From: Candidatus Cloacimonadales bacterium | GTDB lineage: Bacteria; Cloacimonadota; Cloacimonadia; Cloacimonadales; JAIOQZ01 | Direction of reading: 5' to 3' | Length of the DNA stretch: 64,000 nucleotides | NCBI GenBank assembly: GCA_963662655.2 | Contig: CAXXTU010000002.1 | Coordinates: 1,024,001-1,088,000 of the forward strand | In this document: one piece after another, positions 6,985 to 58,300 of the stretch | Numbering within the stretch: position 1 is the first letter of the stretch | How the letters are laid out: the number at the start of each line of letters is the position of its first letter | Made by a program: the position numbers and the translations under genes | Notes under the pieces: model-generated | What the model was told of the DNA's origin: nothing | The model's input: the letters and a program-made list of their open reading frames with translations, nothing else | Databases searched by the model: none

Positions 6985-9077
6985 CTATTTCAATAGCAGC
7001 ATCTTCTGTGCCTTCGATTTTCCGCAGGACTCCAGCCGGTACAGATAGATGCCCGACGACACGTTTTTGCCGCACTCGTTGTCGCCGTTCCAGATGGCCT
7101 TGTGCGATCCGGCTTCGAGGTGATCGTTCACCAACGTTTTCACCAATTGACCTTTGATGTTATACACCTTCAACACGACTTTGTCGTCCTTCGGGATCGA
7201 GAACGAGATCGTCGTGGTAGGATTGAAGGGGTTGGGGAAATTCTGCGCCATGGTGATGGTGTATTGCTGGATGAGGTTGTCGTAGTCGTGCGCGTCAAGG
7301 CTTTGCATGGCGATGTCGCGGTAGGTCGGAGAACCTTGTTCGACCACGATGCCGCTGAACTGCTGGTCTTCGTAATAAAAGCGTTCAACGTTGAGCGTGA
7401 AGACGCCCGGCCCGGTCAGGATTCGGAACCAGCCGGTGCTGTCGCTCCACTCGGGGAACTGCACGCCATCGACGGTGATCTTCGCGATATCCAGCGGCGT
7501 AACGCCGTCTTCCTCGTACACGTAGCCTTCGATACCGCCCCAGAAGGGTGCGCCGTACTCGTAAGCGCCAATATCGATGGTGGCCACGCCGTCGCCGTCG
7601 CCGTCCCATACGCGCACGTTGCCCAGAATATCCGTGGGCGGATAATTCCCGTCCGGCATACCGGCGTCGATGCACGGACTGCCCTCCGCCAGGCTGTAGT
7701 CGCCGTTCAGCGTATCCGCGAACATCGGATCGTCCCCGATGATGTTGCCGCCGCCGTCGGTGACGAAATCAGGGAATGGATGGTTCATGAAATTATAGCT
7801 CAGGATCGTCTCTGGACCACCCCACGCCATTGTTTCTGCTGTGGCGCATAGAATATTATTGTACACTAAGTAATCGTAGGACTCGGTTCCGAAACAGGAT
7901 GTATAATTGGTGTTATATGTGTTATTAAACATAGTGCAGTCGGCAAAAGTTGGATACAAAAACGAATAACCGGTGAACAGATTATTGTATATAACATTGG
8001 GATTTTCTGGTTGATAAAATGTATCGCTGGACGATGTATACACCACATTGTTACACACAATCGTCGAATCGGCATTGCGATCGTTAATATCGACATTTCC
8101 ATAGAAGATATTGTCGGAAATGACGTGATTATCTGTACATGAAGTCGTCATGGGATTACCGGTAGATGTGTCGTAAATGTAATTCTTCCTGGAGTAGCTC
8201 ATATTATCTGGATACCCACCACCTCCACATGCGCTCCAGTTAATGAACACTCCGCCATATACGCACCTGAACGATTGATTTCTTTGGGAATCCTCCTCTT
8301 CCGGAAGAACCAAGTCGTAATCTTCGTAATTGTTGTGGTAATTAAAAACCAGCTGATTGATTAGCCCCCCCCCTGAAATGATCCTGCTCCAAAAGGAAAA
8401 GAAATGTTTACAAAGCGACACCTGGCAGCAATAAGTTGCGGTCTTATTTCGGTATCCGAAACGCCATTAGCAATGATTCCTAAATAACAGCTATCATCGG
8501 CGAATTGAGCTTCTTCGGTTGCCTCGAATGCACATCTATAAATCATGGTATCGTTGTGAAGATCATAACAATAAATACCTGTCTGGCAATTCGTGAAGGA
8601 GCAGTACTCAATTCGAGGGTCACCGGAATCGACACAAATTGCACCAACCGAATCCAAACCTCCAGGAACGACATTTTGGTAAGCGCTATAAAAATCACAA
8701 TACTTGAAAACAGGAGCTTCTGCGCCTTCAAGAATAAAGATACCGCCCCATGCATAACCTTCTGTATCGGGGTATCGTGTGAATGTTATCGGTTCTTCTT
8801 CGGTACCGATCGCTACGATCTTACCGGTGATATAGAATATCTTCGCTTCCGCCTCTCCGCTATTGTCAACTCTGAATTCTTGATAGTTTTGTGCCGGCCT
8901 GGCCCTCATTTGAATATCGCATCCAGGAAGAATTGTAAGGGTTGCGTTTGAATGGACATAGACGTTTTCTTCGAAGATATACGGATTGCTTCTGCGATCC
9001 CAAACGGTGTCCTCGTAGATGTGAAGCGCGTGCAGGAGTGTGATTGAGAGCAGGAAGAGTAGCAGTGTGCGTTTCAT
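6985..9077 (-). CDS. Secreted surface protein (beta-helix-like region, carboxypeptidase-regulatory-like Ig domain, FlgD-Ig CTD) split by a frameshift at a G9 tract
   Basis: ORF 8361-9077 has a signal peptide (MKRTLLLFLLSITLLHA) and GGAGG RBS; ORF 6985-8421 has DPMF..GDYSLAEGSPCIDAG...DIGAYEY and the CTD; frames join at the C9 run 8365-8373. Confidence 0.8.
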
Positions 9078-9087
9078 TGGGGCCTCC

Positions 9088-9223
9088 AAACTCCCCCAAA
9101 CCCCCTCTTGGAATCAAGAGGGGGCTTAAGGAAGGTTTTCACGTCGTTAACAGTTTATCGTCAAACATCTTACCCTTGCCAAGTCCCTCTCTTCATTCGA
9201 AGAGAGGGATTTAGGGTGAGTTT
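9088..9223. repeat. Inverted pair of BoxC/REP-like palindromic units
   Basis: AAACTCCCCCAAACCCCCTCTTG-GAAT-CAAGAGGGGGCTT (9088-9127) and its inverted homologue AAGTCCCTCTCTT-CATTCG-AAGAGAGGGATTTAGGGTGAGTTT (9181-9223). Confidence 0.65.
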
Positions 9224-9225
9224 CT

Positions 9226-11238
9226 CTATTTCAATAGCAGCATCTTCTGTGCCTTCGATTTTCCGCAGGACTCCAGCCGGTACAGGTAGATGCCCGACGA
9301 TACGTTCTTGCCGGATTGGTTATCGCCATTCCAGACAGCCTTATGCGTTCCGGCTTCGAGGTGATCATTTACCAGTGTTTTCACGAGCTGCCCTTTGATG
9401 TTATAGACCTTCAAGACGACTTTGTCGTCCTTCGGGATCGAGAACGAGATCGTCGTAGATGGATTGAACGGATTGGGGACATTCGGGAAGAGCATGGAAA
9501 CCTCTGAAGGTTCGGGTATCACATCGGTCTTATTGTACGACACAAAGTCAATGTCCAGTGCCATATAACAGACCGTTCCACCCAAGGTGAGTGAGCCAGG
9601 ATAAACGTTTTCGTCGCGATACAGGATATGTAGTTTTCCGTGACCGTTGCCCATATCCTCGATCTTGTTTCCAAGATAGGCGTGCGACGGAATCTGCCCG
9701 TCGAGCTGTGCTACGTAATTGCTGTCCTGAGGATTTGCGTTCATGACGATGGGAGGTGACCATGTATCACCGTGATCATTTGAAATGCTGATCATGATCT
9801 CCGGGTGACCACTCCAGCCGGGCCATTGCGATCCTCCGTAATTCGAACATAAGTGTGCGTACAATCCTTCCGACCATATACTTGCCATCCATCCGAGTTC
9901 TTCGTTATTACATGAGCGGTTGTTGGCGGAGATGGAATAGCGTTCAGAGTGCATTGCGTAATAAAGTAGCGCCATTTGAGGCTCAACCTGTCCGGTCTCT
10001 TCGTCGAATCGATCCACTTCGCCATCTTCATCGATATCCCAAGGAAGAACGGGCAGCCCGTCATCGACCGTAAGGCTCTGAGGATACATGTCGGAGGTTG
10101 TGAATTCTTCGCTTTGAGGGTCGAAAACAACGTCCCTGAGTTGGGAATAGTAAGGAGAAGAATCAAATCCATCTTCGGTTGTCCAGCTAAAGGTTAAATG
10201 TATCGGTAGGTGCAGTCTGCCCTGCGAGTCCCTCAATAAATTCGGAAAACCTATGAAGCCACCTGAAAAATGTCCTTCGATCGCGCCAGTCGGCCAGTTG
10301 CTTCCATCCTGATTTTGGGAAACATCAACGGTGAACGATATTGGGTTGGTCGAAAAAGTCCACTCTCCTTCGCCGTAGTTCGTATTGGTCATTGCAAAAT
10401 AGTTAACGGCTCTTTGGTAGGTATATATACGCCCGAAAACAGAAAATACGCCATCCCAATTACAGTCGAATAGATAGGTGAAATTACCTAAATTTTGATC
10501 TGAATCGAGGACGATTTCATCCAGTTGAGGAATGGAGACATACTGCCACTCCACCGATTCGAATCCGTCTTCGATATCTGTAGTCGAAAAATCGCAGAAA
10601 GCGATACGCGGTTCTAAATAACTGCCGGATCCACCATTGAGCACGCTACACGTAGTTATATAGAGTCTTCTTTTACCATCGGATTCGTAAGAAGGAGCTT
10701 TGCTGATGAAAATATTCGGATTCATGTAGATTTCATCTTCGACGAGCGGTTCAAACGGCAAGTTCTCCGGATTGGCGTTGTCGAATACAGTTATGGGTGT
10801 TAGCAAATTCTCTTCGCTTTCTCCCTGGTGGTATGCCGCGATCCCCAGCTGGATGTTGACGAGTCCCCAGTTATCTTGAGCATCCTCCCATACGTAGAAG
10901 GGATCCTGCGTATCCGGATCGATGCAAATGCTTCCATCGTAGTGACCGATCTCGGCAGGCAAAATAGCTTCCATCGAAATCAGATTGCCATTTGAATCGA
11001 GATGAACGAGATGTTGGGTTCGCGTAGTGTTAATTGTATCACTAACGCAGAAGAACATGTAGCACTCGCCATTGTCCAACACCTGAAGAGGCGTATTGTT
11101 CAGGCCAGCGAAGTTAGTGGACAAATTCGAGCATACAATCGGTACGCTTTCCATGTTAAAAGTCCATTCCGGTGTCGTGCCGCTAAGTGATGCGACGACT
11201 CCCATGAAAACGACGCAGGAAAGTATCCATTTCCGCAT
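9226..11238 (-). CDS. Secreted protein with FlgD-Ig CTD and a BNR/Asp-box-like motif
   Basis: Signal peptide, SNDHGDTW Asp-box, C-terminal NVPNPFNP...KMLLLK, GGAGG RBS. Confidence 0.85.
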   Translation of the reverse strand: MRKWILSCVVFMGVVASLSGTTPEWTFNMESVPIVCSNLSTNFAGLNNTPLQVLDNGECYMFFCVSDTINTTRTQHLVHLDSNGNLISMEAILPAEIGHYDGSICIDPDTQDPFYVWEDAQDNWGLVNIQLGIAAYHQGESEENLLTPITVFDNANPENLPFEPLVEDEIYMNPNIFISKAPSYESDGKRRLYITTCSVLNGGSGSYLEPRIAFCDFSTTDIEDGFESVEWQYVSIPQLDEIVLDSDQNLGNFTYLFDCNWDGVFSVFGRIYTYQRAVNYFAMTNTNYGEGEWTFSTNPISFTVDVSQNQDGSNWPTGAIEGHFSGGFIGFPNLLRDSQGRLHLPIHLTFSWTTEDGFDSSPYYSQLRDVVFDPQSEEFTTSDMYPQSLTVDDGLPVLPWDIDEDGEVDRFDEETGQVEPQMALLYYAMHSERYSISANNRSCNNEELGWMASIWSEGLYAHLCSNYGGSQWPGWSGHPEIMISISNDHGDTWSPPIVMNANPQDSNYVAQLDGQIPSHAYLGNKIEDMGNGHGKLHILYRDENVYPGSLTLGGTVCYMALDIDFVSYNKTDVIPEPSEVSMLFPNVPNPFNPSTTISFSIPKDDKVVLKVYNIKGQLVKTLVNDHLEAGTHKAVWNGDNQSGKNVSSGIYLYRLESCGKSKAQKMLLLK

Positions 11239-24767: not shown

Positions 24768-24901
24768 ATCGTGAGCAGATTCGCTTCTTTCCTGCCTGAA
24801 GCCGTGTTGTTACACGTTGAGCGCTTTCACGATACATTGACTCTTTGCGACAACGTGTTATATACACGGTGGAAGGCAGGATGGAGCGAAGATGCCACGA
24901 T
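24768..24901 (+). repeat. Structured hairpin element, copy 1
   Basis: AGCAGATTCG...GCGAAGATGC long imperfect inverted repeat, homologous to copies at 29820 and 35814. Confidence 0.8.
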
Positions 24902-24917
24902 TGAGGAAGGGGAATCG

Positions 24918-25502
24918 CTATTCTTGAGAGGTCTGCGAAATCCTGATGGCGATGCGCCCCGTCGACTCCCAGGAGGATTCGAAATCGTCAAAGGGAATTC
25001 GCACCGGAAGTTCTCCGCCGGTGTGCGCGATCACATACCGGTGTACGCTCGAGTAACCCGTTACCAGCAGATAATGCCTTGGCGACTTGTAGTCCGAGAC
25101 AATCTTGCGCACCCCGTCAAACGGATTAGCCGAGTCCATCTCGACCATCGCAATCAGTGGGATTCCCGCATCGATGCATTGCTTCAAATCATCCAGTGAA
25201 CTCCGGTAGAGCCTCGCGTCCAGACCCCGGGATTTCGCGTAGACAACCATGTCCAGCGTCAGAGTTCCCTCGAGAGCGTCCCTGCGAACTGCCGTGGCGA
25301 CGGAATCCATTCTTACGGCTATCCCGTAATAGTTCAGAACGGAAGTCAACGTCGCGGGACCGCAATCCACTCCGTTTTGTGGGTTGACCGGAATTCCGTC
25401 GATCACATGCTCGACTTCGTAGTTGTACGAGAAGCGAACGCACGAAAAAAAAGCCAGCGAACACAGGCTGGCAAGTATCAGAAGCTTGGTTTTCACTTTC
25501 AT
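24918..25502 (-). CDS. C39-family cysteine peptidase lipoprotein (PA2778-like, no TPR)
   Basis: Lipobox AFFSC, QNGVDCGPA catalytic Cys, HYLLVTGY catalytic His. Confidence 0.8.
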   Translation of the reverse strand: MKVKTKLLILASLCSLAFFSCVRFSYNYEVEHVIDGIPVNPQNGVDCGPATLTSVLNYYGIAVRMDSVATAVRRDALEGTLTLDMVVYAKSRGLDARLYRSSLDDLKQCIDAGIPLIAMVEMDSANPFDGVRKIVSDYKSPRHYLLVTGYSSVHRYVIAHTGGELPVRIPFDDFESSWESTGRIAIRISQTSQE

Positions 25503-25858
25503 GGCGCAAATACGTTCGATTCGGTTCCGGTATCTTCCGCGAGCATGAGCGTTGCGGCGGCTGCGGCAGCCATCAAGCCGATAATGACGAACGTAACGAC
25601 ATACTTCCCGCGCATTCCGCCGGCGTCGATCAAGCCCTCGTCTTCCACCAGTCCTGCAACTTCCACATCACTCAGATCGGCCACCAGGTCGGCGGCTTCT
25701 TCGGCATCCAGACCCTTCTCGACAAGCGCTTCAACCAGTCGCGTGCGGTATTGAACAGCCTGGGCCGCATCCGTTTGGGCAGGAGAAATCCCACTCAGGG
25801 ATGTTCGTGCAAAAAGCAGAATCGCAATGAATAAAAGAAAGTAGCGAGATCGAGCCAT
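25499..25858 (-). CDS. Small exported protein, PA2779-like, with DAGG and a hydrophobic tail
   Basis: Start at ATG 25858 (TGATG overlap); signal peptide, GLDAEEAADLVADLSDVEV, IDAGG, TM tail. Confidence 0.7.
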   Translation of the reverse strand: MARSRYFLLFIAILLFARTSLSGISPAQTDAAQAVQYRTRLVEALVEKGLDAEEAADLVADLSDVEVAGLVEDEGLIDAGGMRGKYVVTFVIIGLMAAAAAATLMLAEDTGTESNVFAP

Positions 25859-26202
25859 CAGTTGTTCGCGTCCACGATCAGCCAGGCGATGATCCCCAGT
25901 GTGAGAGACCAGACAGCTACTTGCGTCCACATTCTTTTACTTCTGCGGCTTCCGGCCTCGTCGATCTGATCCAGATCCGCAGCGATGTCACCCAACTGCG
26001 TGTCATCGATGTTCTCGAGAAGCGCCGTGATCTCCTCATCGGTCAGTTGTTTGTCCTGCAGAGCGCAGCGAACAAACGCCTCGTTCTGTGCTCTCTCGAG
26101 TGTTACGGGACCTTCCGCTTTCGCGTTCGTTACGGTTTCGGCGAAGACAACTCCTACCGAAAGCAGCATGATGATGATTAAGATGCTGGCAATACGCCTC
26201 AT
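25858..26202 (-). CDS. Small exported protein, PA2779-like paralogue, with EAGS and a hydrophobic tail
   Basis: Signal peptide, LTDEEITALLENIDDTQL, DEAGS, TM tail; GGGAG RBS. Confidence 0.7.
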   Translation of the reverse strand: MRRIASILIIIMLLSVGVVFAETVTNAKAEGPVTLERAQNEAFVRCALQDKQLTDEEITALLENIDDTQLGDIAADLDQIDEAGSRRSKRMWTQVAVWSLTLGIIAWLIVDANN

Positions 26203-26266
26203 ATTCGCTCTCCCATATTTTTTCTACGAAATTCACCGGTCAGGGCTTATTTGTCCAGCGATTTTT

Positions 26267-27130
26267 CTACCACTCGTAATCGGGATCGTACATGATGTCG
26301 CCGTAGCCCCATTGAGATTGATTTCCATTTGTATCGAGGATACGGTAGAAGATACGGTAGAGACCGGGAACAAATGAATAATCTCCCGCATTGAACTCGA
26401 TCGATGATTTCCCCGAAAGAACATCATCTGATAAAACTAAGAAATCATCTCCGGTGGCATTGTAAAGAACTACGTCAGCAGTGAATCCTTGCTTGATATT
26501 GTATAGAAATTCTCCCTTTCCATCGAATGGATTTGCGAAAAATCTAAATGCGTTTGTGTCGAGATCCGACAGATTCTCCGGACTGACTATAATTGACAGT
26601 GGGCCAGCAACGTGGACTACATCATTGTTGTGAACCATTTTAACAAAATAGAAGGACGTGGCATCAACGTATGGATAATAGTCATAATACTTATAATCCA
26701 TGTGGTTCGGAGTATTCGTCGCTGGGATAATCTCAAGATTAACATTCTCTGTTATAATATAATCAGGGTCTATACTTCTGAGACAGTAAAATCCCATGAC
26801 ATCTGTTTCAGTTTCTGTTGTCCATTCGATGCAAACGATTTCGAAACCGATGTCGGTAACTTTCAGTGAGGGAAACCAGTAATCGTTGAGTGTGTTTTTC
26901 GAAGTTCGATACGAATAGACTTGCCAGTCGCGCGTATCGACTTCTCCGATCTCACCTTCATCCGAAATAATCGTGTATCCATCGAAATCACCGACATAAA
27001 CAGGAAATTCCGCACCCTCAGGAGTTACCCAGTCTTCATTTCCCGATGACGGCGACGAAAAAAACGAATGGCAACCGCCTAAGAATAACGCGGCGAGAAC
27101 CAGCGCGGTAAGAATGATAAATCTGCCCAT
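26267..27130 (-). CDS. Hypothetical lipoprotein
   Basis: Lipobox FLGGC, GGAGG RBS, Ig-like WTTETETDVMGFY segment. Confidence 0.7.
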   Translation of the reverse strand: MGRFIILTALVLAALFLGGCHSFFSSPSSGNEDWVTPEGAEFPVYVGDFDGYTIISDEGEIGEVDTRDWQVYSYRTSKNTLNDYWFPSLKVTDIGFEIVCIEWTTETETDVMGFYCLRSIDPDYIITENVNLEIIPATNTPNHMDYKYYDYYPYVDATSFYFVKMVHNNDVVHVAGPLSIIVSPENLSDLDTNAFRFFANPFDGKGEFLYNIKQGFTADVVLYNATGDDFLVLSDDVLSGKSSIEFNAGDYSFVPGLYRIFYRILDTNGNQSQWGYGDIMYDPDYEW

Positions 27131-27437
27131 GAAACCCTCCTGCCGGAAAAATGATCTGGAGCACCTTCATTATCGTTATTTCATGCGGTTTGACGTCAAG
27201 TTTTTTCTCTTAACGAAATTACCGCACAAGAATGTACATATCACCATGATATATCCTGGATCGATACGGATATAATTGCATTGTCCAACAGGTTCCGGCG
27301 ATGTTCCGGAAAACATTTTTCACGCGGCGGATTCCGTGTTATGAGATACATCGCAACGACTTATGCTGAAAGTACAACTTTTTCGGCATAAATAATGTAA
27401 CCATAGCGAGGTAAATCCATTTATTCAGTGAAAGCGT

Positions 27438-27971
27438 ATGGAACGGGAAGAAGAAAAAATCAGGGATGCCCGAAAGGACATTAAGTGCTTCGATGCACTG
27501 TATAGCGAATATTATCCGCTCATTGACAGGTTTGTATTCCATAGAGTGAGTGATACGCAGACACGCCACGAGATTGTATCAGATGTCTTTTTCTGCGCAA
27601 TGAACAAGTTGAACATGTTCCGCTGGTTTGGTAAAGGATCATTCCAGGCCTGGTTGATACGAATCGCCATGAATGAGGTAAACGGCTATTATCGCCGGGC
27701 AAAGCGGGATAAAAGAATAATGGAGAAACTCGAGTGGGAGTCGGACGCCTGCAATGGGGATATGCAGGACGACGACGGCTTCGACTACGGGAAAATCCGC
27801 AGCGCGCTTGAAGAGCTTCCCTTGAAGGATCAGAACCTTATCAGTCTCAGGTTCTTCAACAAGCTCAAGCATCAGGAGATTGCGGAAGTTTTCAAGACGA
27901 CCGAGGGAGCTGTAAAAGTGAGGCTTCACAGAGCAATGGACAAGCTCCGCAAGATTGTCGAGGGGGATTAG
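27438..27971 (+). CDS. ECF RNA polymerase sigma factor
   Basis: Region 2 (EIVSDVF, FQAWLIRIAMN) and region 4 (EIAEVFKTTEGAVKVRLHRA). Confidence 0.92.
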   Translation: MEREEEKIRDARKDIKCFDALYSEYYPLIDRFVFHRVSDTQTRHEIVSDVFFCAMNKLNMFRWFGKGSFQAWLIRIAMNEVNGYYRRAKRDKRIMEKLEWESDACNGDMQDDDGFDYGKIRSALEELPLKDQNLISLRFFNKLKHQEIAEVFKTTEGAVKVRLHRAMDKLRKIVEGD

Positions 27972-27973
27972 AA

Positions 27974-28441
27974 ATGGATTTTGAAAACAAATTGAACGCG
28001 ATGAATGTACCCGGGCCCGAAAACGACGGGTATGATATTCAGTTGAGAGCCGCTCTGAAAGAACATTACTTTGGACGTGAGAAAAAATACCAATACCGTT
28101 TTCGTCTATCGGTGGGATTTGCCTCAGCGCTTCTAATGATACTGTTCGTTTTTATCTGGAATCCCGAACTTGCCATCCGGGCGAACCAGATTGCATTCCG
28201 AAGTAATGCACCGGAGCGGCTCGATTCTTCAGCGGATAACGCGGACGAGGAATACGTGGATTATACATCACTGTACAATCCCGAGCTTTATCCGATTTTC
28301 CATGAAGAAAACTACGAAGAAGAAAAGGCATACGTGATTCGAAAGTACAAATCATCCGAAAAGGGTGAATTGATGATCGTATCCGAATTTGATCCGGTCG
28401 ATACCATACCTGTCGGGAAAAATCTGCCCGGCAGTATATAG
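27974..28441 (+). CDS. Putative anti-sigma factor (single TM)
   Basis: Directly after the ECF sigma; short cytoplasmic N-terminus and one TM helix. Confidence 0.65.
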   Translation: MDFENKLNAMNVPGPENDGYDIQLRAALKEHYFGREKKYQYRFRLSVGFASALLMILFVFIWNPELAIRANQIAFRSNAPERLDSSADNADEEYVDYTSLYNPELYPIFHEENYEEEKAYVIRKYKSSEKGELMIVSEFDPVDTIPVGKNLPGSI

Positions 28442-28480
28442 TAAAGCCTTTATAAGTTGAAGATCGTATAGGAGGTAACA

Positions 28481-29719
28481 ATGAAACGATTCATGCTGCT
28501 ACTGCTGATCCTTGCTGTCGCGGGATTCGCAACGCTTTCGGCGAAATCCTTTATGGGGGTATTCACGAGCACGCTCGATGAAGATGATTATGAGGAACTG
28601 GGCGTCAAGGGACAATACGGCATTCTCATCGAAGAGGTGATCGACGATACACCCGCCGACAAAGCTGGCTTCGAAGATGGAGACGTGCTGCTCGAAATGA
28701 ACGGCGACAAAATCTACACAAGCGATCAACTGACCAAGATGCTCACGATGATCGATCCGGGCACGAAGGTTAAATGCCAAATCGTCCGCGACAAGAAAGA
28801 ACAAACTCTCAAACTCGAGATCGGTGAACGCAGCGATTACACTGCCAAGAAGCCTTTCATCGGGATCAACATGAGCAATCTCAAGGCCTCAACGCTGGAG
28901 AAAAAAGGCGTCACAGAAGGCTACGGCATCCTTCTCACCGGCATCGTCGAAGACTCGGCGGCTGAAGAAGCCGGCCTCATGAAAGACGATGTCCTGCTCA
29001 AGATCGATGACAACAAGATATACACGATCGACCAGCTTGGAAAAATCGTCGACCAGATGAAGATCGGACAAAAATCGAAGTTTCAGGTCTACCGCGATGG
29101 CGACCGCAAGACGCTCGATGTTACCATTGGCGAGAAAGAGCTCGGATTCAGTCGCAAGAACCTGTGGTTCAATAACATCCCGAAATCCATCAAGATATTC
29201 AAGGATTTCGACAAGCACCCAAATGCGATCGGATTCACGCTGCAGAGCGAAAACGTGAAAGACGGTAAGGCCGAAAGCGTGACCATCACACGAATCGAGA
29301 AAGATTCCCCGGCGGATAAAGCTGGCCTGAAGGTCGATGACATGATTCTCAGCATCGAAGGCAAGTCCGTGAACGAAATCGACGATATCCACAACGTACT
29401 CGACGACAAGAAGCCCGGCGACATGGTCGAGCTGAAAATCAAGCGTGACGGAACTGAAATGACCCTGAAAGCTGAGGTGAAAACCCGCAAAGATATCTAC
29501 GGCGATGACGATATCCAGATTTTCTACGATGACGGCGAAATGATCATCGAGCGAAACGGTGAGAAGATCGAAGTTGATAGCTCCGAATATATCAAGAAGA
29601 TCCAGGGAATCGAAAACCTCGAAGGTAATCTCAAGAACCTCGAGAAGATTCAGAAATTTGAGAACATAGATTTCGATTTCGACTTTGATTTCGAGTATGT
29701 GGATTCCGGTGTTATATAA
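28481..29719 (+). CDS. Exported protein with three PDZ domains
   Basis: Signal peptide; three PDZ repeats (FMGV/FIGI/AIGF ... PADKAG/AAEEAG ... DVLL/DMIL). Confidence 0.85.
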   Translation: MKRFMLLLLILAVAGFATLSAKSFMGVFTSTLDEDDYEELGVKGQYGILIEEVIDDTPADKAGFEDGDVLLEMNGDKIYTSDQLTKMLTMIDPGTKVKCQIVRDKKEQTLKLEIGERSDYTAKKPFIGINMSNLKASTLEKKGVTEGYGILLTGIVEDSAAEEAGLMKDDVLLKIDDNKIYTIDQLGKIVDQMKIGQKSKFQVYRDGDRKTLDVTIGEKELGFSRKNLWFNNIPKSIKIFKDFDKHPNAIGFTLQSENVKDGKAESVTITRIEKDSPADKAGLKVDDMILSIEGKSVNEIDDIHNVLDDKKPGDMVELKIKRDGTEMTLKAEVKTRKDIYGDDDIQIFYDDGEMIIERNGEKIEVDSSEYIKKIQGIENLEGNLKNLEKIQKFENIDFDFDFDFEYVDSGVI

Positions 29720-29782
29720 CCGCCTGAAGGCTCTTTGGACGGTTGAATAAATCCTCCCTCTCCAAATGCATATCCAAATGAT

Positions 29783-29809
29783 AGCCGGCTCCCCGCCGGC
29801 TTTTTCTTT
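29783..29809 (+). terminator. Intrinsic terminator
   Basis: AGCCGGC-TCCCC-GCCGGCT followed by TTTTCTTT. Confidence 0.75.
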
Positions 29810-29819
29810 GCCCGTACAA

Positions 29820-30094
29820 ATTCGGAAGCAGATTCGCTCGCTCCGACGAGAAGACGTGGTGTTATACGGTTTTTCGTTTGAAGTGCCAAAAATTCTTCTG
29901 GCACTTCAAACGGAAAATCCTCTCTGAGAACAATTTCCGCCTCTACTGATTTTCAAGTTTGTGGTCCATCGAAGCGGAAATTGTATTACACATCGTGAAG
30001 CGCGTGTATGTTTATTTTCCTGAGTGAGAAAATGTCGCGCTGACCGATGTGTTATATCCACGGCGGAGCAAGGTCGGGCGAAGATGCGACGAAT
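29820..30094 (+). repeat. Structured hairpin element, copy 2 (expanded with nested hairpins)
   Basis: Same AGCAGATTCG / GCGAAGATGC ends; about 170-nt multi-hairpin insert. Confidence 0.7.
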
Positions 30095-30126
30095 GCCAAG
30101 GCTTGGAAACGCCTTGCTTCAAGTAC

Positions 30127-32400
30127 CTAGCGGAAATCGCTACCGATCTGCACATACCACTCCATCTTTCCGGAGTCCGAAGTGCCGTCCATTATCATGA
30201 GTTCAACCGGCCCGATGGGCGTTTTCGCCCCGATGCTCAAGCCGTATCCCGCCAGATATCCATCCGCTTTGGTAAACAGGTGGGTGTATTCGTTACACGC
30301 CTTTCCGGCCCCAATACGTCCAGCAAGGAAAATATTCTTCCAAGCCTCGTAGCGGATGCCCATATCGTACGAAAGTGCGCACTTTCCCACCTTGTGCATC
30401 CAATCAAGACCGAGCATGGGAATGAAGCGCGACTCGTGGTAGTGCTGCCCACCCAGGAAGAAATCGAACTCGTCCGGAACCTGATCGCCAACTACGCCCC
30501 CGCTGTATGCGTTGAGCAGGAACGACCATTTCTCCTTGATCGGAAAGATGTTCCTCGTTCGCCCATAGTAACGCTTGAAATGGAACTGCTCATCTTCAGA
30601 ACCAGAGCCATAATCCATTATTCCATAGTATCCACGCGCTTCGATGTAAAACTCGATGCCATCGCGGGGAAAAACCGAACGATCATACGTATCCGCATTG
30701 AGGAATCCAAAGTAATCGATGAAAGACGACTTAATCTCGTCGGGGAAATACTCAACCGTCCTCGCCTTCAAATCCATCTCGGACTGAAACAGCTCGATTC
30801 CCAGTCCCGCAGTAATCCTGTTGTCGTTCACAGTTTGCACCGTAAACTGTTGGCCATACATCTCGTAATCGTAGAACGCGTATCGCTGCCCGTCCTCTCC
30901 ATACAGCCAGATATCAAACGATTCCCCGTTTATGGACCCCTTGAGGCCAAGTCCGGGCTCCCATCCAGGATAATAGAAATATTCCGTGTTCCAGGCGTAG
31001 TTGTCGCTCAGCTTCAGATCGAACGAAAGCCGCGATCCATCCAGCAATAGGTTCTTGAACGACAAATTCAGCATCAATGCCGCCTTCAGATCGCTGTTGT
31101 AATTGACCCCTGCGCGTAATTCACCACTCTTCTTCTCGATCGCCTTGATGATTAGCACCACTCCGTCCTCAGCAGGTGAAAGCCGGTAGTTCACCAGCTC
31201 GAAGTATCTCGTTCCATACAATCGATCGATCGCCTCCTCGATGTCCTTCGTCGTAACCCACGTATCCGGCTCAATCTGGAGACTCGCCAGCACGACCTTC
31301 TCCGATATCTGATCCAGCCCTTCCGAGGTTATCTCCGAGATGTAGATAGCGTCCGGCACCACGAGCTTTTCCTGCTCGGGGGGAGCGGGATACTTCTTCT
31401 GCTCTTCGACAATCGCCTTCAATTCGGAGTATTGCTCGAATACCGCATTGATGCCATGCGCGATCAGCGAATCGGACTTCTGGAAGTCCATGAAATTGTA
31501 TCCCGGTAGCTTGGGCTCGATATAAACATCGACGTATGGCAATTGCTCGTCCAGGCAGTTGATACTGTGAAAGGATATTGTTTGCGCAAGAATATTCAGG
31601 AACGAGTCCAACTCGTCCTCAGTCGCCATGTTGCCGCTCACATCCACGGCGATCACGATATCCGCTCCCATCGCGGAAACGTACTCGGCCGGAAGATTGC
31701 AAGAGAGCCCCCCATCCACCAAGGTTTTCCCGTTCAGCTTGATCGGTATGAACATGGATGGGATCGACATGCTGGCTCGCATCGCGTCGGGAAGGTATCC
31801 CTTGTCCAGGATCACCGGCTTGCCCGATTCAATGTCGGTCGCGATGCATAAAAACGGTATGGGGAGTTGATTGAAATCGCTGATATGGTGCGTCGCGACG
31901 GTTAGTCGAGTCAGGATTTCATATAGCTTTTGCCCGGTGAGGAGTCCCTGCGGAAGCTTGATACCGAAACCTTCGATCGGGAATACAAATGGAAACGCCG
32001 CGTCGATCGATTTTTCTTCGAAAGGAACGCTCGACCGCGGAATTTCGTCGGATAGCGCGGCGTCCCAATCGATGTCGTAGGAGAGTTGCTCGAGCTGGTA
32101 GGGATCATATCCGATGGCGTACAACCCGCCGATGATCGCGCCCATGCTCGTTCCGGTGACATAATCCGGCTTGATTCCTATCTCTTCCAGCGCTTGCAGC
32201 ACGCCGATATGAGCGAGCCCGAGAGCTCCGCCGCCACTCAGTACCAGCCCGATGCGAGGACGGGCGTCATCCTTATCAACCTTTTCCACGTTCCTGAATC
32301 GCTTCAGCAGGCGTATCGGATCTTCCCCGTTCTTCGGAGAGATCGCAACAAGCATTTGCCCAAGAATCAGCAAAAGGATCATCAAACAGCATTTCCGCAT
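30127..32400 (-). CDS. Patatin-like phospholipase with POTRA and BamA/TamA-like barrel (PlpD-type)
   Basis: Signal peptide, SGGGALG, GTSMG, DGG, POTRA-like segment, C-terminal TPIGPVE..Y.QIGSDFR. Confidence 0.88.
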   Translation of the reverse strand: MRKCCLMILLLILGQMLVAISPKNGEDPIRLLKRFRNVEKVDKDDARPRIGLVLSGGGALGLAHIGVLQALEEIGIKPDYVTGTSMGAIIGGLYAIGYDPYQLEQLSYDIDWDAALSDEIPRSSVPFEEKSIDAAFPFVFPIEGFGIKLPQGLLTGQKLYEILTRLTVATHHISDFNQLPIPFLCIATDIESGKPVILDKGYLPDAMRASMSIPSMFIPIKLNGKTLVDGGLSCNLPAEYVSAMGADIVIAVDVSGNMATEDELDSFLNILAQTISFHSINCLDEQLPYVDVYIEPKLPGYNFMDFQKSDSLIAHGINAVFEQYSELKAIVEEQKKYPAPPEQEKLVVPDAIYISEITSEGLDQISEKVVLASLQIEPDTWVTTKDIEEAIDRLYGTRYFELVNYRLSPAEDGVVLIIKAIEKKSGELRAGVNYNSDLKAALMLNLSFKNLLLDGSRLSFDLKLSDNYAWNTEYFYYPGWEPGLGLKGSINGESFDIWLYGEDGQRYAFYDYEMYGQQFTVQTVNDNRITAGLGIELFQSEMDLKARTVEYFPDEIKSSFIDYFGFLNADTYDRSVFPRDGIEFYIEARGYYGIMDYGSGSEDEQFHFKRYYGRTRNIFPIKEKWSFLLNAYSGGVVGDQVPDEFDFFLGGQHYHESRFIPMLGLDWMHKVGKCALSYDMGIRYEAWKNIFLAGRIGAGKACNEYTHLFTKADGYLAGYGLSIGAKTPIGPVELMIMDGTSDSGKMEWYVQIGSDFR

Positions 32401-32402
32401 TC

Positions 32403-34715
32403 TTAGAACCTGTATCCAATATTCACGTATGAAGTTCCGTTTTTATCTACATTACCTGTCATCCAGGTATATTCGACCGGCCCGATCGGCGTATCGGCAC
32501 CCAAAGTAAAACCATAGCCCCATACATAGTGTTTCTTGTACCAGAGATCGTCGTAATCGTCCGTCGCCTTACCCAGACCGGCAGTTACCGTAGCGTATAC
32601 ATCGTCGAGGACTTCATATTGAAATGCCGACATCATCGACATAACGTTCTTTCCATAGCGCTTCATTTCCCCCAACCCAATGAGCGGGACGAACCGGGGA
32701 TCGTTGTTGTACTTGAGCCCACCCAGGAAAAACTGGAACTCGGGATACTGGTACTCCGTGGAGCGGATGAAGCCATAATATCCCCTGAACTGAAGGGCTG
32801 TTCGTTCCCAGAGGGGTATCGCCCGAAAATACCGGAAGAAATAACGCTCGAAATCCTCATTGACCTCTGCCTTTTGCCCGGTGGTTATTTCGGCCTCCAT
32901 CACACCGGTAAAAGATCTGAACTCGGCATAAAGGTTACCGCCTTTTCGCGGGTAGTTCAATTTTTCGAGCGTATCAGTCTCCAGCTTGAGAAAGTAATCG
33001 ACCATCACAGTAGATATCCTCTTACCGTCGACCTCCATGGTCGTCGCTTTCAGCTTCACTTCCGAGGCAAGTAGTTCAGCCCCAGCCCCAATCGACAGGA
33101 AATTGTCCACCAGCGTTTCCGCCATCAGGGATATTCCTCCCTGATAGTAGTCCCAATAAGACTCGCGTTCGTTATCCTTGTTGTACGCCCAGATATCCAT
33201 TTTGCTCTCGAAGTATTTCGCTTCAAAACCCACACCCGGGTGGCGACCCGTCAACAGGTAGTATCGCAAATCCCAACCGTACTGATCGCCGAGTTTAACA
33301 TTGGCCGAAAATTTACTGCCTTCAAGGAGAAGGTTTCTGAATGTACCATTGAACAGGAGAGCAGACTTCGATACGCTATCGTAATGCAAACCTACCTTGA
33401 ATAGGTTCGAGCTCTTCTCTTTCACCTTCACGATGAGCTTCACCCCACCTGCCACAGGCACCAGGCGGTACATCGCCAGGTCGAAATACTGGCTGCCGTA
33501 CAATCTCTCGATGCCCTGCTGAATCTCTTCGGGACGTACCCACCCCTGCTGGGGAATCGTCAGCTTGCTGTAAACCAGATCGCGAGAAACGTTTTTCAGG
33601 CCTTCGATGCCGATATCGAGGATGTACACCGAATCGATCATCGTTTTCGGCTCAGGGAGATCGATCTGGGGATACATCTCCATGTAATCGCTGAGCGCAG
33701 TCAATTCATCAAAGCGATCCATTGCCGCCCTGTAGCCGCTGGCGATCAGCGTGTCGGCGGCATCGAAATCCATGATACTGTAGTTACCGGTCTCGGGGCT
33801 TATATAGATATCCACCAGCCTTTTCTGCTCTGCGGTGCTTCGATAACCGGAGAAGCTTATCGCCTGGCTGAGGATGCTGATGATGCTGTCGAGCTTGTCG
33901 CGCTTGGACGGAGTCCCCGCAACGTTCACCCCGATGATGATATCCGCGCCCATATCCAGCGCGTCGACAACCGGGAAGTTCCTCACCAGACCGCCGTCAA
34001 CCAGCAGCCTTCCCTCTATCTCAAACGGTATGAACATGGAGGGTATCGACATGCTTGCCCGGATCGCGTCGGGGAGATAACCGTGATCCAGCACCACGGC
34101 TTCGCCCGTCTCGATGTCAGTCGCGATACAACGGAACGGAATGGGCAGTTTATTGAAATCGTTGATATGGTGAATCGACATGGTTAGCTGGGAAAGATAC
34201 GCGTAGAAATTCTGCCCCGCCAGCAGTCCCGAAGGCAACGAGATATCCAGGCCGCGGATTGCGAACGAAAGCGGGTATTTATCCACATCGAGCTTCTCTT
34301 CCAGGGCGATCTGATGCCGGGGGATTTTATCCATGAGCAGAGTGTCCCAGTCCTGATGCGCGACCATCTCTTCAATCTGGTCGGCGCTGTAACCAACGGA
34401 ATAGAGGCAGCCCATGATGCTCCCCATGCTGGTTCCCGTGATGTAATCCACCTTGATCCCGGCTTCTTCCAGCACTTTGAGCACACCGATATGCGTTAGA
34501 CCAAGCGCTCCGCCGCCGCTAAGGACCAGGCCGATTCGCGGTTTTCGCCCAAGCGTATCGAGACTCGTATGCTTGAGGTGCTGCAGAATCTCCTTCCCGT
34601 AGTCGGGAAAAAGGAGGCTGTCCGGGATTTCCTCGATCGCGTGAACGATACATGCGACCAGTAAAAGGATAAAAAAGAGAAACATCCTGCTCTTCGCAGG
34701 TGGAAAAATCCGCAT
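32403..34715 (-). CDS. Patatin-like phospholipase with POTRA and BamA/TamA-like barrel (PlpD-type), paralogue
   Basis: SGGGALG, GTSMG, DGG, C-terminal TPIGPVE...YVNIGYRF. Confidence 0.88.
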   Translation of the reverse strand: MRIFPPAKSRMFLFFILLLVACIVHAIEEIPDSLLFPDYGKEILQHLKHTSLDTLGRKPRIGLVLSGGGALGLTHIGVLKVLEEAGIKVDYITGTSMGSIMGCLYSVGYSADQIEEMVAHQDWDTLLMDKIPRHQIALEEKLDVDKYPLSFAIRGLDISLPSGLLAGQNFYAYLSQLTMSIHHINDFNKLPIPFRCIATDIETGEAVVLDHGYLPDAIRASMSIPSMFIPFEIEGRLLVDGGLVRNFPVVDALDMGADIIIGVNVAGTPSKRDKLDSIISILSQAISFSGYRSTAEQKRLVDIYISPETGNYSIMDFDAADTLIASGYRAAMDRFDELTALSDYMEMYPQIDLPEPKTMIDSVYILDIGIEGLKNVSRDLVYSKLTIPQQGWVRPEEIQQGIERLYGSQYFDLAMYRLVPVAGGVKLIVKVKEKSSNLFKVGLHYDSVSKSALLFNGTFRNLLLEGSKFSANVKLGDQYGWDLRYYLLTGRHPGVGFEAKYFESKMDIWAYNKDNERESYWDYYQGGISLMAETLVDNFLSIGAGAELLASEVKLKATTMEVDGKRISTVMVDYFLKLETDTLEKLNYPRKGGNLYAEFRSFTGVMEAEITTGQKAEVNEDFERYFFRYFRAIPLWERTALQFRGYYGFIRSTEYQYPEFQFFLGGLKYNNDPRFVPLIGLGEMKRYGKNVMSMMSAFQYEVLDDVYATVTAGLGKATDDYDDLWYKKHYVWGYGFTLGADTPIGPVEYTWMTGNVDKNGTSYVNIGYRF

Positions 34716-34781
34716 ACGAAACTCCGGGGATAGATTATATCAGGTGACGGTTGGGATACCCTTCACATCATCATACAAAAC

Positions 34782-35429
34782 TTATGGCTCGCGGGGATAG
34801 CGTTCCAGAAAATCAAGCGCCTCTCGAAGTCCTTTGTTGGCTGCGCCTTCAACCAGATCGTACCCCTCGTCTGCTCTTCCGAGCTGAACATAGACGACGC
34901 CAAGCGCGCTTTGGGATTTCAGGTGTTCCGGGCTGACCTTCAGCGCCCTTTCCAGGTGAATCTGCGCTTCCGGCAGATTTCCTTGCTCCAGCGAGATGAG
35001 GCCCAGGCTGTAAAATGTTTCGACGTTGGTGGAGTCTAGCTCTGCGGAACGTTTAAGAGAGCGAACGGCATTCCCGAAATCCTTGCGAAAATAGTACGTG
35101 ACGCCCATGTCGTACCAGGTCTGGTCGTCATCCGGCGTGCTTTCTACCTGATTCTTGAAATGCTCCAGGGCGAGCTCGTAATTTCCCATTTTCTGATAGC
35201 ACAGCCCGATGTTGAACTCGATCCCGGGATGATCAGGGTTGAGCTCTCTCACTTTCTCGAAAGCCTGTATCGATTGCTCGTATGCTCCCGAACCGAACAG
35301 CTCCACCGCCTGGGAAAACAACTGCTTTGCCTCGGCAAGCTTGGGATCTTCCTCACGACGATACGTCTCCTTGGCTGCCAGTGTCCCGGCAAGAATAAGC
35401 AATATCAGAAGCAATGCAATATTCCTCAA
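34782..35429 (-). CDS. Exported TPR protein
   Basis: Probable TTG start at 35429 after AGGA; signal peptide; about 5 TPRs. Confidence 0.8.
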   Translation of the reverse strand: MRNIALLLILLILAGTLAAKETYRREEDPKLAEAKQLFSQAVELFGSGAYEQSIQAFEKVRELNPDHPGIEFNIGLCYQKMGNYELALEHFKNQVESTPDDDQTWYDMGVTYYFRKDFGNAVRSLKRSAELDSTNVETFYSLGLISLEQGNLPEAQIHLERALKVSPEHLKSQSALGVVYVQLGRADEGYDLVEGAANKGLREALDFLERYPREP

Positions 35430-35541
35430 AATGCAATCCTTTACGATTTTTGCCCAGTTTTGAAGATTGTTCAAGTTTGTCAATGAAAGCATTTTCGCTT
35501 GACAGGAAACACACGCCTTTTAAGCATGAATCAATTCACGT

Positions 35542-35617
35542 GGGGCTATAGCTCAGTTGGGAGAGCGCATCGTTCGCAATGATGAGGCCAGGGGTTCGAA
35601 TCCCCTTAGCTCCACCA
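35542..35617 (+). tRNA. tRNA-Ala (anticodon CGC)
   Basis: GGGGCTA acceptor stem with G3:U70, D-loop AGTTGGGA, anticodon loop TTCGCAA, GGTTCGAATCC, encoded CCA; 76 nt. Confidence 0.97.
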
Positions 35618-35696
35618 TATTTTTGTTCACCATCTTCTACAGTGCGCCCATTATCATTGCCTTCAATACGCGTGGGATGAGAACCGTTGCCTTAAG

Positions 35697-35732
35697 TCGA
35701 ATCCCCTTAGCTCCACCATATTTTTGTTCACC
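35697..35732 (+). repeat. 36-bp perfect duplicate of the tRNA-Ala 3' end (att-like)
   Basis: TCGAATCCCCTTAGCTCCACCATATTTTTGTTCACC also at 35596-35631. Confidence 0.92.
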
Positions 35733-35813
35733 TTCTTGTATAGTACACGAATGGATATTCTTCATCGTTTCCACTTCACCTCAATGGAAATAATCGAAAA
35801 ACAAACACTTCAA

Positions 35814-35941
35814 GTCGTTAGCAGATTCGTTTGATCTCCCCACGGAGCCGTATCGTTACACGCCTTTTTATCTCGTGTCCGGTAGTCTCGAAGGCGTGTC
35901 GTTATACGGTGGAGTGGGAGATCGGGCGAAGATGCAACGAC
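35814..35941 (+). repeat. Structured hairpin element, copy 3
   Basis: GTCGTT-A-GCA-GA-TTCG...CGAA-GA-TGC-AACGAC long hairpin. Confidence 0.8.
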
Positions 35942-55321: not shown

Positions 55322-58300
55322 ATGAAAAACCTTTCCATGATCATTTTTTTCTTCTTGATAATCATTCCATTGCTCTCGACATCGTACGTTGTTGCACCGG
55401 GCACCACCTCGTCACCGTACAGCCCCTTCTCCATAGCGTACGAGTACGGGTGGTCCCGAATGTTCTACACTGCAACGGACCTGGCTGAAGCAGGCTTGAC
55501 CAGGCCTGCGGATATCATCGCACTGGGATTCGATGTCAACTACTGCAACGACAACATAATTAGAACCAATCAATCGATATACATGAAACACACCCAATCG
55601 ACGCTCGACACCTCCTACCCCGGCACGAGCGGTTATACAAGCGTGTTCTCGGGAACGGTTCGAGCCCATGAAACGGGCTGGATCACCATCATCCTCGATG
55701 CCCCATTCGCTTGGAACGGCTCCGATAATATTGAAATTCTATGGGAAAATCACTCTGGCGCATCGATCAACATCAGTTTCGGATTCAGCGCAGAATATCT
55801 ACCCTACAACGCATACCAATCATCATACAAACGGCAAAACGGCTCGTTTCCGACAAGCGCCGGATCAAGCCATCAGGCGTTGCCGACCGTAAAAATGTTC
55901 ACGAGCATCGACGCGATACCGGATATACCGGCTTTCGAATACCCGGAAGACGGTAAACTCGCCGTTCCGGACCCCATGATGCTCTGGCACAGCCAGGGCG
56001 AAAACCCGCCCACATCCTGGGATGTCTATTTCGGAACGACCAATCCTCCCGCCTTCAGCCACAATCAGACAAATGACTTCTACCAACCTTCGTGCGTCGC
56101 GGGGCAGGAATACTTCTGGCAAATTGTCCCTCAGAATGCCCATGGCAGCCCGTCCGGCAGCCCGATTATGTCCTTCACCATACCGGACGAATCCATGAAT
56201 TTCGTGGGATTCGAGGATACGACATTTCCACCGGCCGGTTGGATTTTCAACGGCAATGTTACCCGGCAATACCACAGCTTCAATCCATTCCTGAACGGAA
56301 ATTATTACGCACATGCGTACTCGCCGAGCTACCTCGTCAGCCCTAAAGTAACCGTTTCACAGGGAGCCGCTTTCGACTTCTCTCTCATGGGCTTACCGAG
56401 CAATGAAGTCGACCTGTTGATTTCCTCGAACGCCATTGACTGGACGGACTCCGGGCTGTCTTTCAGCACAACCGAGGATCTCGTCTGGACGCAAGCACAC
56501 GTGGTTTTGAGTGATTTCCTGTCACCCGGAGACTACTACCTGCGCTTGAATGTGGACAATCAGGAATACACGTATTGCAGGCTGGACAATATCTTCTACC
56601 CTGAAATAGCACCGTCGCCACCGGCTCCAGCGGCGAATCTTGCTCCCGAGGTTGGCGAAACCATCTTCGGACTCGGCTCCGAAACGCTCTCCTGGGAACC
56701 GACCGCCGGACTTGTCGAAAGCTACGACATCTATTTTGGAACCGAGAACCCGCCGCCGTTCCTGGTGAATCAAACCGCCGCAAGCTATACCTGCACCGAC
56801 CTCGCGGCAAATCAGACCTACTACTGGAAAGTCCTTCCCCGCAACGAATACGGAGTAGCGGAGGATTGTCCGGTGTGGCTTTTCCACACGCCGAGCGCAA
56901 CCCAGATACAGGAGGGATTCGAAAGTACAACGTTCCCCCCAGCCGGGTGGAATTTCTCTGGCACGTTCAACCGAGCGTACTTCACCAATATTGAAGGATC
57001 GTATTGTGCGCAACTTCAAGCATTACCAAGCAACACCGGAATCATGACAACCCCACGGGTTGAAATCACGGAAAACTCGGTGTTCGATTTCATGGCGCAC
57101 AAACAAAACTCTTCGACTCCGGCAATGCTGCAAGTCCAGTATTCACTCGACGGCTCACAGTGGGATGTTCTCGGCGAATTCGAGGATTTCAATTCTTCGG
57201 CATACAATCCGACAAGGATTCAGGTGGATTTGTCGTCGATATTCGATCCGGGGACCCAACTCTTCCTGATGATCAAAGGGATCCCCACGGGGACTTCCAC
57301 CACCAGCTTCTATATTGACCGCATCATCGGCCCGGAAGTCGTGGGCGGTGTGCCCGGCGCGCCATCAATCATCGGCCCGGCAGACAGAGGCTGGCTGCTC
57401 ACGAACGAAACGCTTCGCTGGACATCACTCGCCGGAGTAACGGACAGCTACGATGTCTATTTTGGGACAACCGATCCGCCGCCGTTTATCCAGAATCAAA
57501 CCGGAACGAGCTATCTGCCGACCGTCGAGGCCGGGGAGCAGTACTATTGGAAAGTCGTTCCCCGCAACAGCGAAGGCGAGTTACTCAATTGCCCGGTATA
57601 TTCCGTTCGAACGCCAACTGCAAGTCAACTGGCAGAAAGCTTCGAGAATTATCCGCCGTTCCCACCGGATGGATGGATAAACCAGAGCGCTTTTCAGATT
57701 TGGTCCAATCCCAGCTATGCTTATCATGGGGCATTCATAACGGCAATAAGGAACAACACAGGAATACTGATCACTCCCAAGCTGGACATTACCGCCACAA
57801 CGGAATTCGAGTTTTACGCCAAAAACCACACCCCTGGCGGTGAGAAGAGCATCCAGTTAAAATGGACCGTCAACGGCAGCGACTGGTATCCCCTCGGCGA
57901 CGAGATCGATATCAGCTATCAATATGAATGGAAGCGATTCACCTTCGATCTCGCGGAGGCGGCTCAATCACATGATGCCTGCTACGTAGGAATTGAAGTT
58001 GATCCCGATTACAACTGCGGATATGTTATGCTCGATCATATCGTTGGGCCGGAGCGTGTAATGGACCCCGTGCCGGAACCTGCTGTTCGCATGTTCCCCC
58101 AAGAGAACGGTTGGATGTTTACGGACGAATCGCTGGAGTGGAAGAGCCTCATCAACGTATGCACCAGCTATGACGTATATTTTGGAACCGACAATCCGCC
58201 TCCGTTTATCCAGAATCAAACGGAAACCAGCTTCAGCCCGACACTTGATGCAGGGGAAACCTATTACTGGAAAATCGTCCCCTACAACGAGAACGGACCA

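Follow-up and report, generated by a model that had tools for sequence, protein, structure and literature searches.

Three hairpins of one Cloacimonadales genome belong to a fork-oriented repeat family that may be a single-strand element

What are three long, strand-specific hairpins doing between the genes of a Candidatus Cloacimonadales bacterium, and how can their stems differ from copy to copy and still pair? The question arises in a stretch of 64,000 nucleotides, here called the window, which is C2:1024001-1088000 of the 3.81-Mb genome G000. An earlier reading of the letters alone (the original prediction) had proposed three copies of a covarying hairpin, selected for structure and loop identity, that would be either a protein-binding RNA motif or a substrate handled as single-stranded DNA (ssDNA). 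Our analysis of this genome and of its congeners G001, G002, and G003 indicates that the hairpin repeat family is real and apparently undescribed. We posit, at a probability of about 45%, that it is a non-autonomous single-strand hairpin element, REPIN- and attC-like in behavior, whose partner enzyme was not found. That is, of the two branches first offered, an ssDNA substrate resembling attC sites or repetitive extragenic palindromes (REPs) is the best reading, and the RNA branch is weakened.

The three hairpins themselves (Table 1) are largely as first described. The coordinates, both anchor motifs, the outer stems, the bulged A, GCA/TGC, and the tandem GA all hold, copy 3 has three consecutive G·U pairs, and copies 1 to 3 lie 16, 32, and 6 nucleotides (nt) from the nearest stop codons. 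Their RNA folding z-scores are -8.8, -7.4, and -7.9, with none of 200 shuffles equally good, and the plus strand is indeed favored, by 12 to 14 kcal/mol as RNA and by only about 2.5 as DNA. Copy 2, which had seemed degenerate, instead carries a 121-nt nested repeat and is a standard copy once that insert is removed. A model built from 30 copies and run over the window finds copies 1 and 3 in full, copy 2 in part, and nothing more.

What had been called a three-copy family actually numbers about 130 copies in G000. Searching with arm profiles yielded 133 pairs, of which 131 passed a score filter and 129 had both anchors; some 10 further copies are partial or flipped, and no autonomous copy was found among the unpaired arms. 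All 131 are intergenic by our own simple gene caller, all 129 are distinct in sequence, and the copies are dispersed singly and almost all intact, with few fragments. Core lengths run from 67 to 381 nt, with 82 copies at 110 to 119 nt; the 381-nt copy (C2:1736705-1737085) holds an apical 68-nt unit about four times and lies beside terminase-like phage genes. The model counts at least 33, 33, and 59 primary copies in G001, G002, and G003, respectively, after 6, 9, and 9 antisense duplicates were dropped; these are lower bounds from 150 scored candidates per genome. Copy number differs about four-fold between species. One G002 contig (C10, L236) whose genes are duplicated elsewhere in G002 at 71 to 80% identity bears a G000-type element and is possibly a contaminant.

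Beyond the genus, under strict filters, the model finds no copy in 37 other relatives or 148 other genomes of the phylum, and three other genera of the same family lack the element. Loose patterns run over 232 phylum genomes gave three single matches outside the genus, which were judged by their unfolded starts to be unlike the element; with no multi-copy family in 228 other phylum genomes, the element is restricted to 1 of the 66 genera of the phylum. A strict left-arm pattern run over 185,579 species genomes matched 14 times, always in one of three Candidatus Cloacimonadales bacterium records. In viral contigs, two strict patterns had no match and 23 loose matches included no rod hairpin, and BLAST against plasmids and phages returned no meaningful match. 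The view that no known family fits stands: at the gathering cut-off the one Rfam family reported in the window is tRNA, and when E-values were loosened, 20 genome copies and 16 metagenome loci matched nothing but tRNA and generic hairpin models, none over its cut-off. Flavo-1 (RF01705) was considered and rejected, as it reached 18.4 of 42 bits at best, and not at a copy. Searches of the open literature turned up no account of the family, though subscription papers and the supplements of RNA-motif surveys could hold it.

Read inward along the folding strand, the element consists of a variable outer stem of about 6 bp, a bulged A (99 of 112 copies), GCA/TGC, tandem GA/GA, TTCG/CGAA, two G·T pairs, CGATC/GATCG, a variable stem that in some copies holds a GNA/GNA loop, CGTGG/CCACG, a TGTT/TATAT loop, and an inner stem topped by an apical loop, of which there are several subtypes; a weak 3' tail follows. 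Copy 1 shows this order plainly, from outer stem through bulged A (24774), GCA/TGC, tandem GA (24778-79 with 24891-92), and long stem to the GNA/GNA loop, the TGTT/TATAT loop, the inner stem, and the apical loop, whereas the symmetric inner loop of copy 3 is a rare form. The apical motif of copy 3, GTCCGGTAG, is common in the congeners. Some copies have the inner loop flipped, with TCAT before TGTT, and middle-stem and apical types combine in every way. Two early generalizations fail on this larger set: the GRAG/YGGA loop, thought invariant, gives way to an uninterrupted stem in 69 of the 117 copies that could be classified, and conservation is not confined to unpaired positions, as the terminal paired bases are conserved as well.

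The pairing itself is very well maintained. In a 30-sequence alignment, 93% of cells are paired versus 74.9% in shuffles (0/500 as high) and 34 to 46% in slid controls, and 31 of 41 stem pairs change on both sides; the covariation first seen in three copies is confirmed. Across 112 standard copies, 3109 of the 3360 variable-stem cells hold Watson-Crick pairs, and even the outermost stem, which varies among copies, pairs at one position in 117 of 129 (45 expected). In contrast, Watson-Crick pairs occupy just 5 of 224 cells at the tandem GA positions and 28 of 224 at the GT positions. Stem mismatches in the same 112 copies are lopsided (G·T 76 versus A·C 37; A·G 57 versus C·T 15; G·G 32 versus C·C 8), and the excess of G·T over A·C and of A·G over C·T favors the folding strand.

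Does such covariation mean that each base pair is under selection? Nine orthologous G002/G003 pairs were compared, leaving aside one with a wholly replaced interior, one that is paralogous, and one other. Of their 450 stem pairs, 23 are double-changed where 3.9 are expected; 18 of these are still paired, and 10 fall in one copy. Since double changes come in blocks, as arm-to-arm repair would also give, covariation is no proof of per-pair selection, nor does it prove an RNA function. The GA, GT, and bulge positions, which persist against such repair, are the real sign of selection. Thus, the proposal of selection on structure plus loop identity survives in that structure and a few noncanonical positions are kept, but not in its use of covariation as evidence pair by pair. 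There is a caution here for RNA-motif discovery: in a multi-copy repeat, block repair of arms can yield very strong covariation.

One pointer to a DNA-level process is orientation to the replication fork. In G000 a cluster of DnaA boxes marks the origin at 2.768 Mb, where skew is lowest, and the terminus is placed where skew is highest (0.809 Mb), 12 kb from a dif-like site at 0.797 Mb (C2:796.6 kb). On C2, 92 of 125 copies have their folding strand on the C-rich strand, which is the template for leading-strand synthesis (p 1e-7); for gene 3' ends the figure is 474 of 851 (56%). The bias persists between convergent (37:15) and divergent (10:0) genes, so gene direction is no explanation there. 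It recurs in G001 (31/33) and G003 (49/57, omitting two copies in a zero-skew region), where replichores were drawn from skew in 20 tiles each and without an origin check; it reaches up to 94% and is even along both replichores. Three other repeat types in congener tiles are unbiased (6:6, 9:9, and 6:10, small counts). Octamers of the element are not polarised elsewhere in G000, and a KOPS-like reading was rejected. An Xer/dif (IMEX) reading was likewise set aside, as the dif-like site shares only TTAT with the element and copies occur genome-wide. The folding strand had also been proposed to be antisense to the adjoining mRNA. This is true of 99 of 131 copies, where the gene on the 3' side ends antisense to it, but in G000 replication direction accounts for most of the pattern; a residual antisense tendency remains in co-directional intervals (45 versus 22; by replichore, 33:7 and 10:15). 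Fork-linked orientation favors a DNA-level process over an mRNA motif.

Could the folding strand nonetheless be a structured RNA, either one whose spread involves an RNA intermediate or one with the role of a small noncoding RNA? All of the noncanonical pairs favor one strand and are typical of RNA, the folding strand folds better as RNA in 127 of 129 copies, an apical G(T/C)(T/C)CG(A/G)TAG motif recurs in 46 of 129, and the terminal module is common to several lineages, as described below. Mosaic copies would fit an error-prone reverse transcriptase (RT), and cDNA primed at the fork would set the complement on the G-rich strand, matching what is observed. These points have to be set against a G001 without any RT and a G000 in which the RT is broken, flanks with no conserved promoter or terminator (<0.25 bits of information beyond position -10), 10 copies between divergent genes, a folding strand mostly antisense to read-through, and terminators ahead of the element that are equal on both sides (17/74 versus 23/97). 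We consider an RNA unlikely.

Another pointer is turnover of sites. At orthologous loci, sites are partly shared, and copies differ or are missing between species. At the site of copy 1, G001 and G003 hold a copy of another subtype facing the opposite way and G002 holds none; at that of copy 2, G003 holds an opposite-facing copy. Among eight syntenic intervals with a copy in a congener, G000 has a copy in three. Fixed sites can keep the same outer stem with the inner part swapped (L222/L139, L218/L240), one G002 copy joins the 5' flank of one G003 site to the interior and 3' flank of another (both G003 flanks carry copies), and one G003 copy occupies the place of a small ferredoxin-like gene found in three genomes. 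Synteny is broken in 38 of 46 element intervals versus 57 of 109 controls (p 5e-4), and this link may help to account for the extensive shuffling of gene order seen in the genus. A weak conserved (C/A)AT lies 8 to 15 nt beyond the 3' foot. Beyond their outer stems, the 129 copies show no direct repeat at a fixed offset that could be a target duplication, though shifting ends could hide one.

These features bear on a further possibility, namely that the family is a double-stranded miniature inverted-repeat transposable element (MITE), its arms the imperfect terminal repeats of a lost insertion sequence (IS), its inner stems made by template switching, and its orientation the outcome of hairpin purging. 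The arms would pass for a pair of imperfect inverted repeats, and multi-base compensatory changes are possible in one template-switching step (PMC8794818). The missing target duplication speaks against such an origin, as do an outermost stem that is copy-specific yet paired, unlike transposase-bound ends, and GA and GT mismatches that persist though repair would erase them. Moreover, the strands are nearly equal as DNA, and purging alone would hardly yield a 94% bias. We regard this origin as quite improbable. Alternatively, the hairpins may be host DNA sites, bound in one orientation by a replication or nucleoid protein, selected locus by locus, and copied to new places by gene conversion rather than by a transposase of their own. 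A bias so high and so even on both replichores, the near absence of fragments, the lack of a mobile enzyme common to the four genomes among the kinds searched for, and a module found also in distant bacteria would all fit. Host sites would not be expected to be missing from three other genera of the family and 228 phylum genomes, to turn over between species, or to vary some four-fold in number, and we think this explanation improbable.

Fork-linked orientation, strand-specific structure, site turnover, and patchy spread together point instead to a non-autonomous element handled as ssDNA. In this model, a trans-acting enzyme, most plausibly an HUH enzyme (RAYT/TnpA-like), would read the bulged A, tandem G·A, and G·T pairs in the folded strand. 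Pasting would be tied to ssDNA at the fork and tolerated chiefly beside gene ends. The bias might be set at insertion, with the complement entering the lagging-strand template, or, as in sedentary attC arrays, by loss of copies with an exposed folding strand. Template switching or conversion between arms and copies would rewrite stems block by block, with only module-keeping copies recopied; such block-wise double changes would explain why the copies all differ yet pair. Recombination between copies may then give rise to neighboring deletions and rearrangements.

Several observations weigh against this single-strand model. Several features are RNA-like (the G·U pairs, the tandem GA, and an apical motif resembling a T-loop), and RNA energies give a three-fold larger strand difference than DNA energies do (14 versus 4 kcal/mol). 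The active strand of known HUH elements is the lagging template (PMC6006769), the opposite of the folding strand here. G000, the genome richest in copies, has no Y1 transposase (seven candidates scored; motif scan empty), and of the 17 Y1 loci of five relatives, most carry other repeats and none has the element at its flanks. No recent jump is seen, given that no copies are identical and the fork bias is steady across apparent age classes (33/44, 34/44, and 32/43). No clean empty allele could be aligned among the compared sites to place the ends and target of the element, and contigs from the same study contained no junction that leaves a copy out. The synteny-break test has no gap-length control. 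Finally, a link to a repeat of subclass-1.2 HUH genes, described next, is absent in G000 (9 versus 8 of 129).

In the congeners, but not in G000, ordered mosaics combine the element with two other repeats. One of these, of the type that flanks a subclass-1.2-like HUH gene (L024), adjoins the element on its 5' side in 34 of 90 copies and on its 3' side in 3 of 90. The L024 gene has the Y---Q-HH signature of subclass 1.2 (PMC6006769), a subclass described as being without REPs. This gene and those at L019 and L020 are flanked by palindromic repeats that recur across congener genomes, and the intergenic mosaics of G001 to G003 (e.g., L240, L243, L247) include REP-like, BoxC-like, and CAGGAT-rich repeats around the element.

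Which enzyme could serve such an element? No co-occurring HUH enzyme, integrase, or RT was found across all four genomes, and no mobile enzyme is common to them in a search that covered Y1 transposases, RTs, IS110, TnpB, and tyrosine recombinases. RT genes occur in three of the four and are different genes; the sole one of G000 (L017:1141-2700) is interrupted by TGA and adjoins a presumably SatD-like gene. IS110 occurs in G002 only, and TnpB in none of the four. The tyrosine recombinases that they share are only XerC- and XerD-like, names that we assign from gene context, and the integron integrase model TIGR02249, applied to G000, stayed below its cut-off. The flanks of congener TnpA genes do not match the element arms. 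An ISL3-like element of 1.35 kb, present at 12 to 13 sites of C2 (e.g., 1506261, 1950515, 3484904), enters A/T runs; its ends differ from those of the hairpin element, and three of its copies lie 4 to 54 bp from one. An IS3-like element has no hairpin copy at its ends. Chance at this copy density would account for a copy 7 bp past xerD and for the three copies found at gene ends that in congeners bear a Y1 gene (3/8 sites). No gene family is prominent among neighbors of copies except secreted proteins of the FlgD/type IX secretion system type (21/116).

Is the terminal module found elsewhere? A loose pattern for it gave 19 matches in metagenomes: three chance matches in coding sequence, 14 hairpins of a second family on gut-type contigs, and two single hairpins. 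In these 16 hairpins, pairing runs on inside the pattern (5 to 6 of 6) and resumes in an outer stem past a one-base bulge (2 to 4 of 4), neither of which the pattern requires; the letters of the module were set by the search pattern, so their identity across lineages is partly by construction. Twelve of the 16 were tested with the model and scored 40 to 51 bits. Hairpins of the second family have a middle stem of their own that covaries (10/48 pairs), and a degenerate tandem copy precedes some of them. On 11 of the 14 contigs the hairpin stops exactly at the TAA of an antisense gene, as TA-targeting MITEs do, a point in favor of the double-stranded MITE origin considered above. The single hairpins (L282:3001-3087 and L292:707-794, the latter directly after an ssb gene) share the terminal module and a TGC/AAA inner loop. 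Neighbor proteins on these contigs match G000 at 28 to 75%, and by these proteins the contigs, which come from other bacteria, may be labelled tentatively as Bacteroidales-like and alphaproteobacterial-like. One contig carries a 488-aa Cas12f/TnpB-like gene (L287:531-1994) followed by a CRISPR-like array of ~36-nt repeats; we rejected it as a partner, as it has its own array and is unrelated. From this small sample of three lineages, we speculate, as a doubtful extension, that there may be a cross-phylum class of fork-oriented hairpins that share one terminal module (bulged base, 3 bp, tandem G·A, 4 bp, G·T) and differ by lineage in their inner loops. An enzyme class so far tied to no repeat would move or recombine them, and they would act as joints of gene-order shuffling.

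Table 1. Coordinates of the hairpins and associated features (window positions unless a locus is named)
Feature	Position	Strand	Remarks
Hairpin copy 1	24768..24901	+	model R1, 101.8 bits
Intrinsic-terminator-like site of the upstream PDZ gene, before copy 2	29783..29811	+	consensus scan; outside the element
Copy 2, left arm, ending where the nested repeat enters	29820..29864	+
Nested repeat B inside copy 2	29865..29985	+	121 nt; double hairpin; TAC...GTA ends
Copy 2, inner stem-loop and right arm	29986..30094	+
Hairpin copy 3	35814..35941	+	symmetric CGTT/CGTT inner loop; model R1, 120 bits
Second hairpin family	L280, L281, L283, L286-L291, L293-L297		gut-type metagenome contigs

The insert in copy 2, repeat B, is bordered by TTA at 29862-29864 and 29986-29988. 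It is a covarying double hairpin with TTA/TGA flanks and about 20 related places in G000, and it enters the hairpin element at TG-TTA-CAC in either orientation. It stands alone in G002/G003 (L054, L055, L057) and is nested in the opposite orientation in G001 (L056, L059, L062). Repeat B has no overall bias relative to the fork (12:8) and is likely a MITE with a 3-bp target duplication. Elsewhere in the window are a tRNA-Ala(CGC) (35542-35617), a tandem pair of patatin-Omp85 genes (30127-34715; 757 and 770 aa), and a 2354-aa protein (55322-62386) with matches limited to fibronectin-III and reelin-like sequences. Parts of secreted FlgD-domain genes (7078-8133 and 8695-9478) are duplicated at C2:2850051-2852457 with 92 to 95% identity.

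How does the family compare with known systems? Like REPINs mobilized by RAYTs, as described in PMC3116915 and PMC6006769, it comprises about 100 dispersed extragenic hairpins with conserved ends and a variable spacer with compensatory changes, clustered with other repeats. It differs in that its arms diverge from each other at fixed positions, where a REPIN has a single palindromic REP in two inverted copies, in having no GTAG/GTGG foot at its outer ends, in flanking no Y1 gene, and in its fixed noncanonical mismatches and fork-linked orientation; an inner GTGG...CCAC with a GTAG...CTAC variant does exist, and GGGG/CCCC also occurs there. Like attC sites (PMC5371416), it keeps structure over sequence, has unpaired determinants and a variable apical part, and places the favored strand antisense to the upstream gene and, as in sedentary arrays, on the leading-strand template. 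In contrast to attC, RYYYAAC/GTTRRRY boxes are missing from its consensus on either strand (read from logos), there are no cassette arrays or integron integrase, neighbors include housekeeping genes, the terminal sequence is far more conserved, and lengths reach 381 nt. With IS200/IS605 ends and the non-autonomous elements derived from them it shares a strand-specific hairpin, replication-linked orientation, and no target duplication, but it is one long hairpin rather than two subterminal ones, its folding strand is on the leading template, and G000 has no TnpA and the genus no TnpB. Unlike a classical MITE, it shows no target-site duplication at a fixed offset and shares no terminal repeats with the ISL3-like element of G000. 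ERIC/IRU and BIME repeats, compared here by Rfam and pattern scans where sequence is concerned, resemble it as rod hairpins of ~130 nt near stop codons and in the ordered mosaics that the congeners show, but the present element has no target duplication, its copies are all different, its motifs are unrelated, and the phylum is another. Rfam RNAs such as Flavo-1 offer a covarying rod with tandem GA and GU. Short bacterial repeats whose driver is known belong to a small number of classes, namely REP/RAYT systems, IS-derived MITEs, and attC sites; the family behaves like these but lacks defining features of each. If it is a single-strand mobile element, its conserved module would be a bait for a new DNA-processing enzyme.

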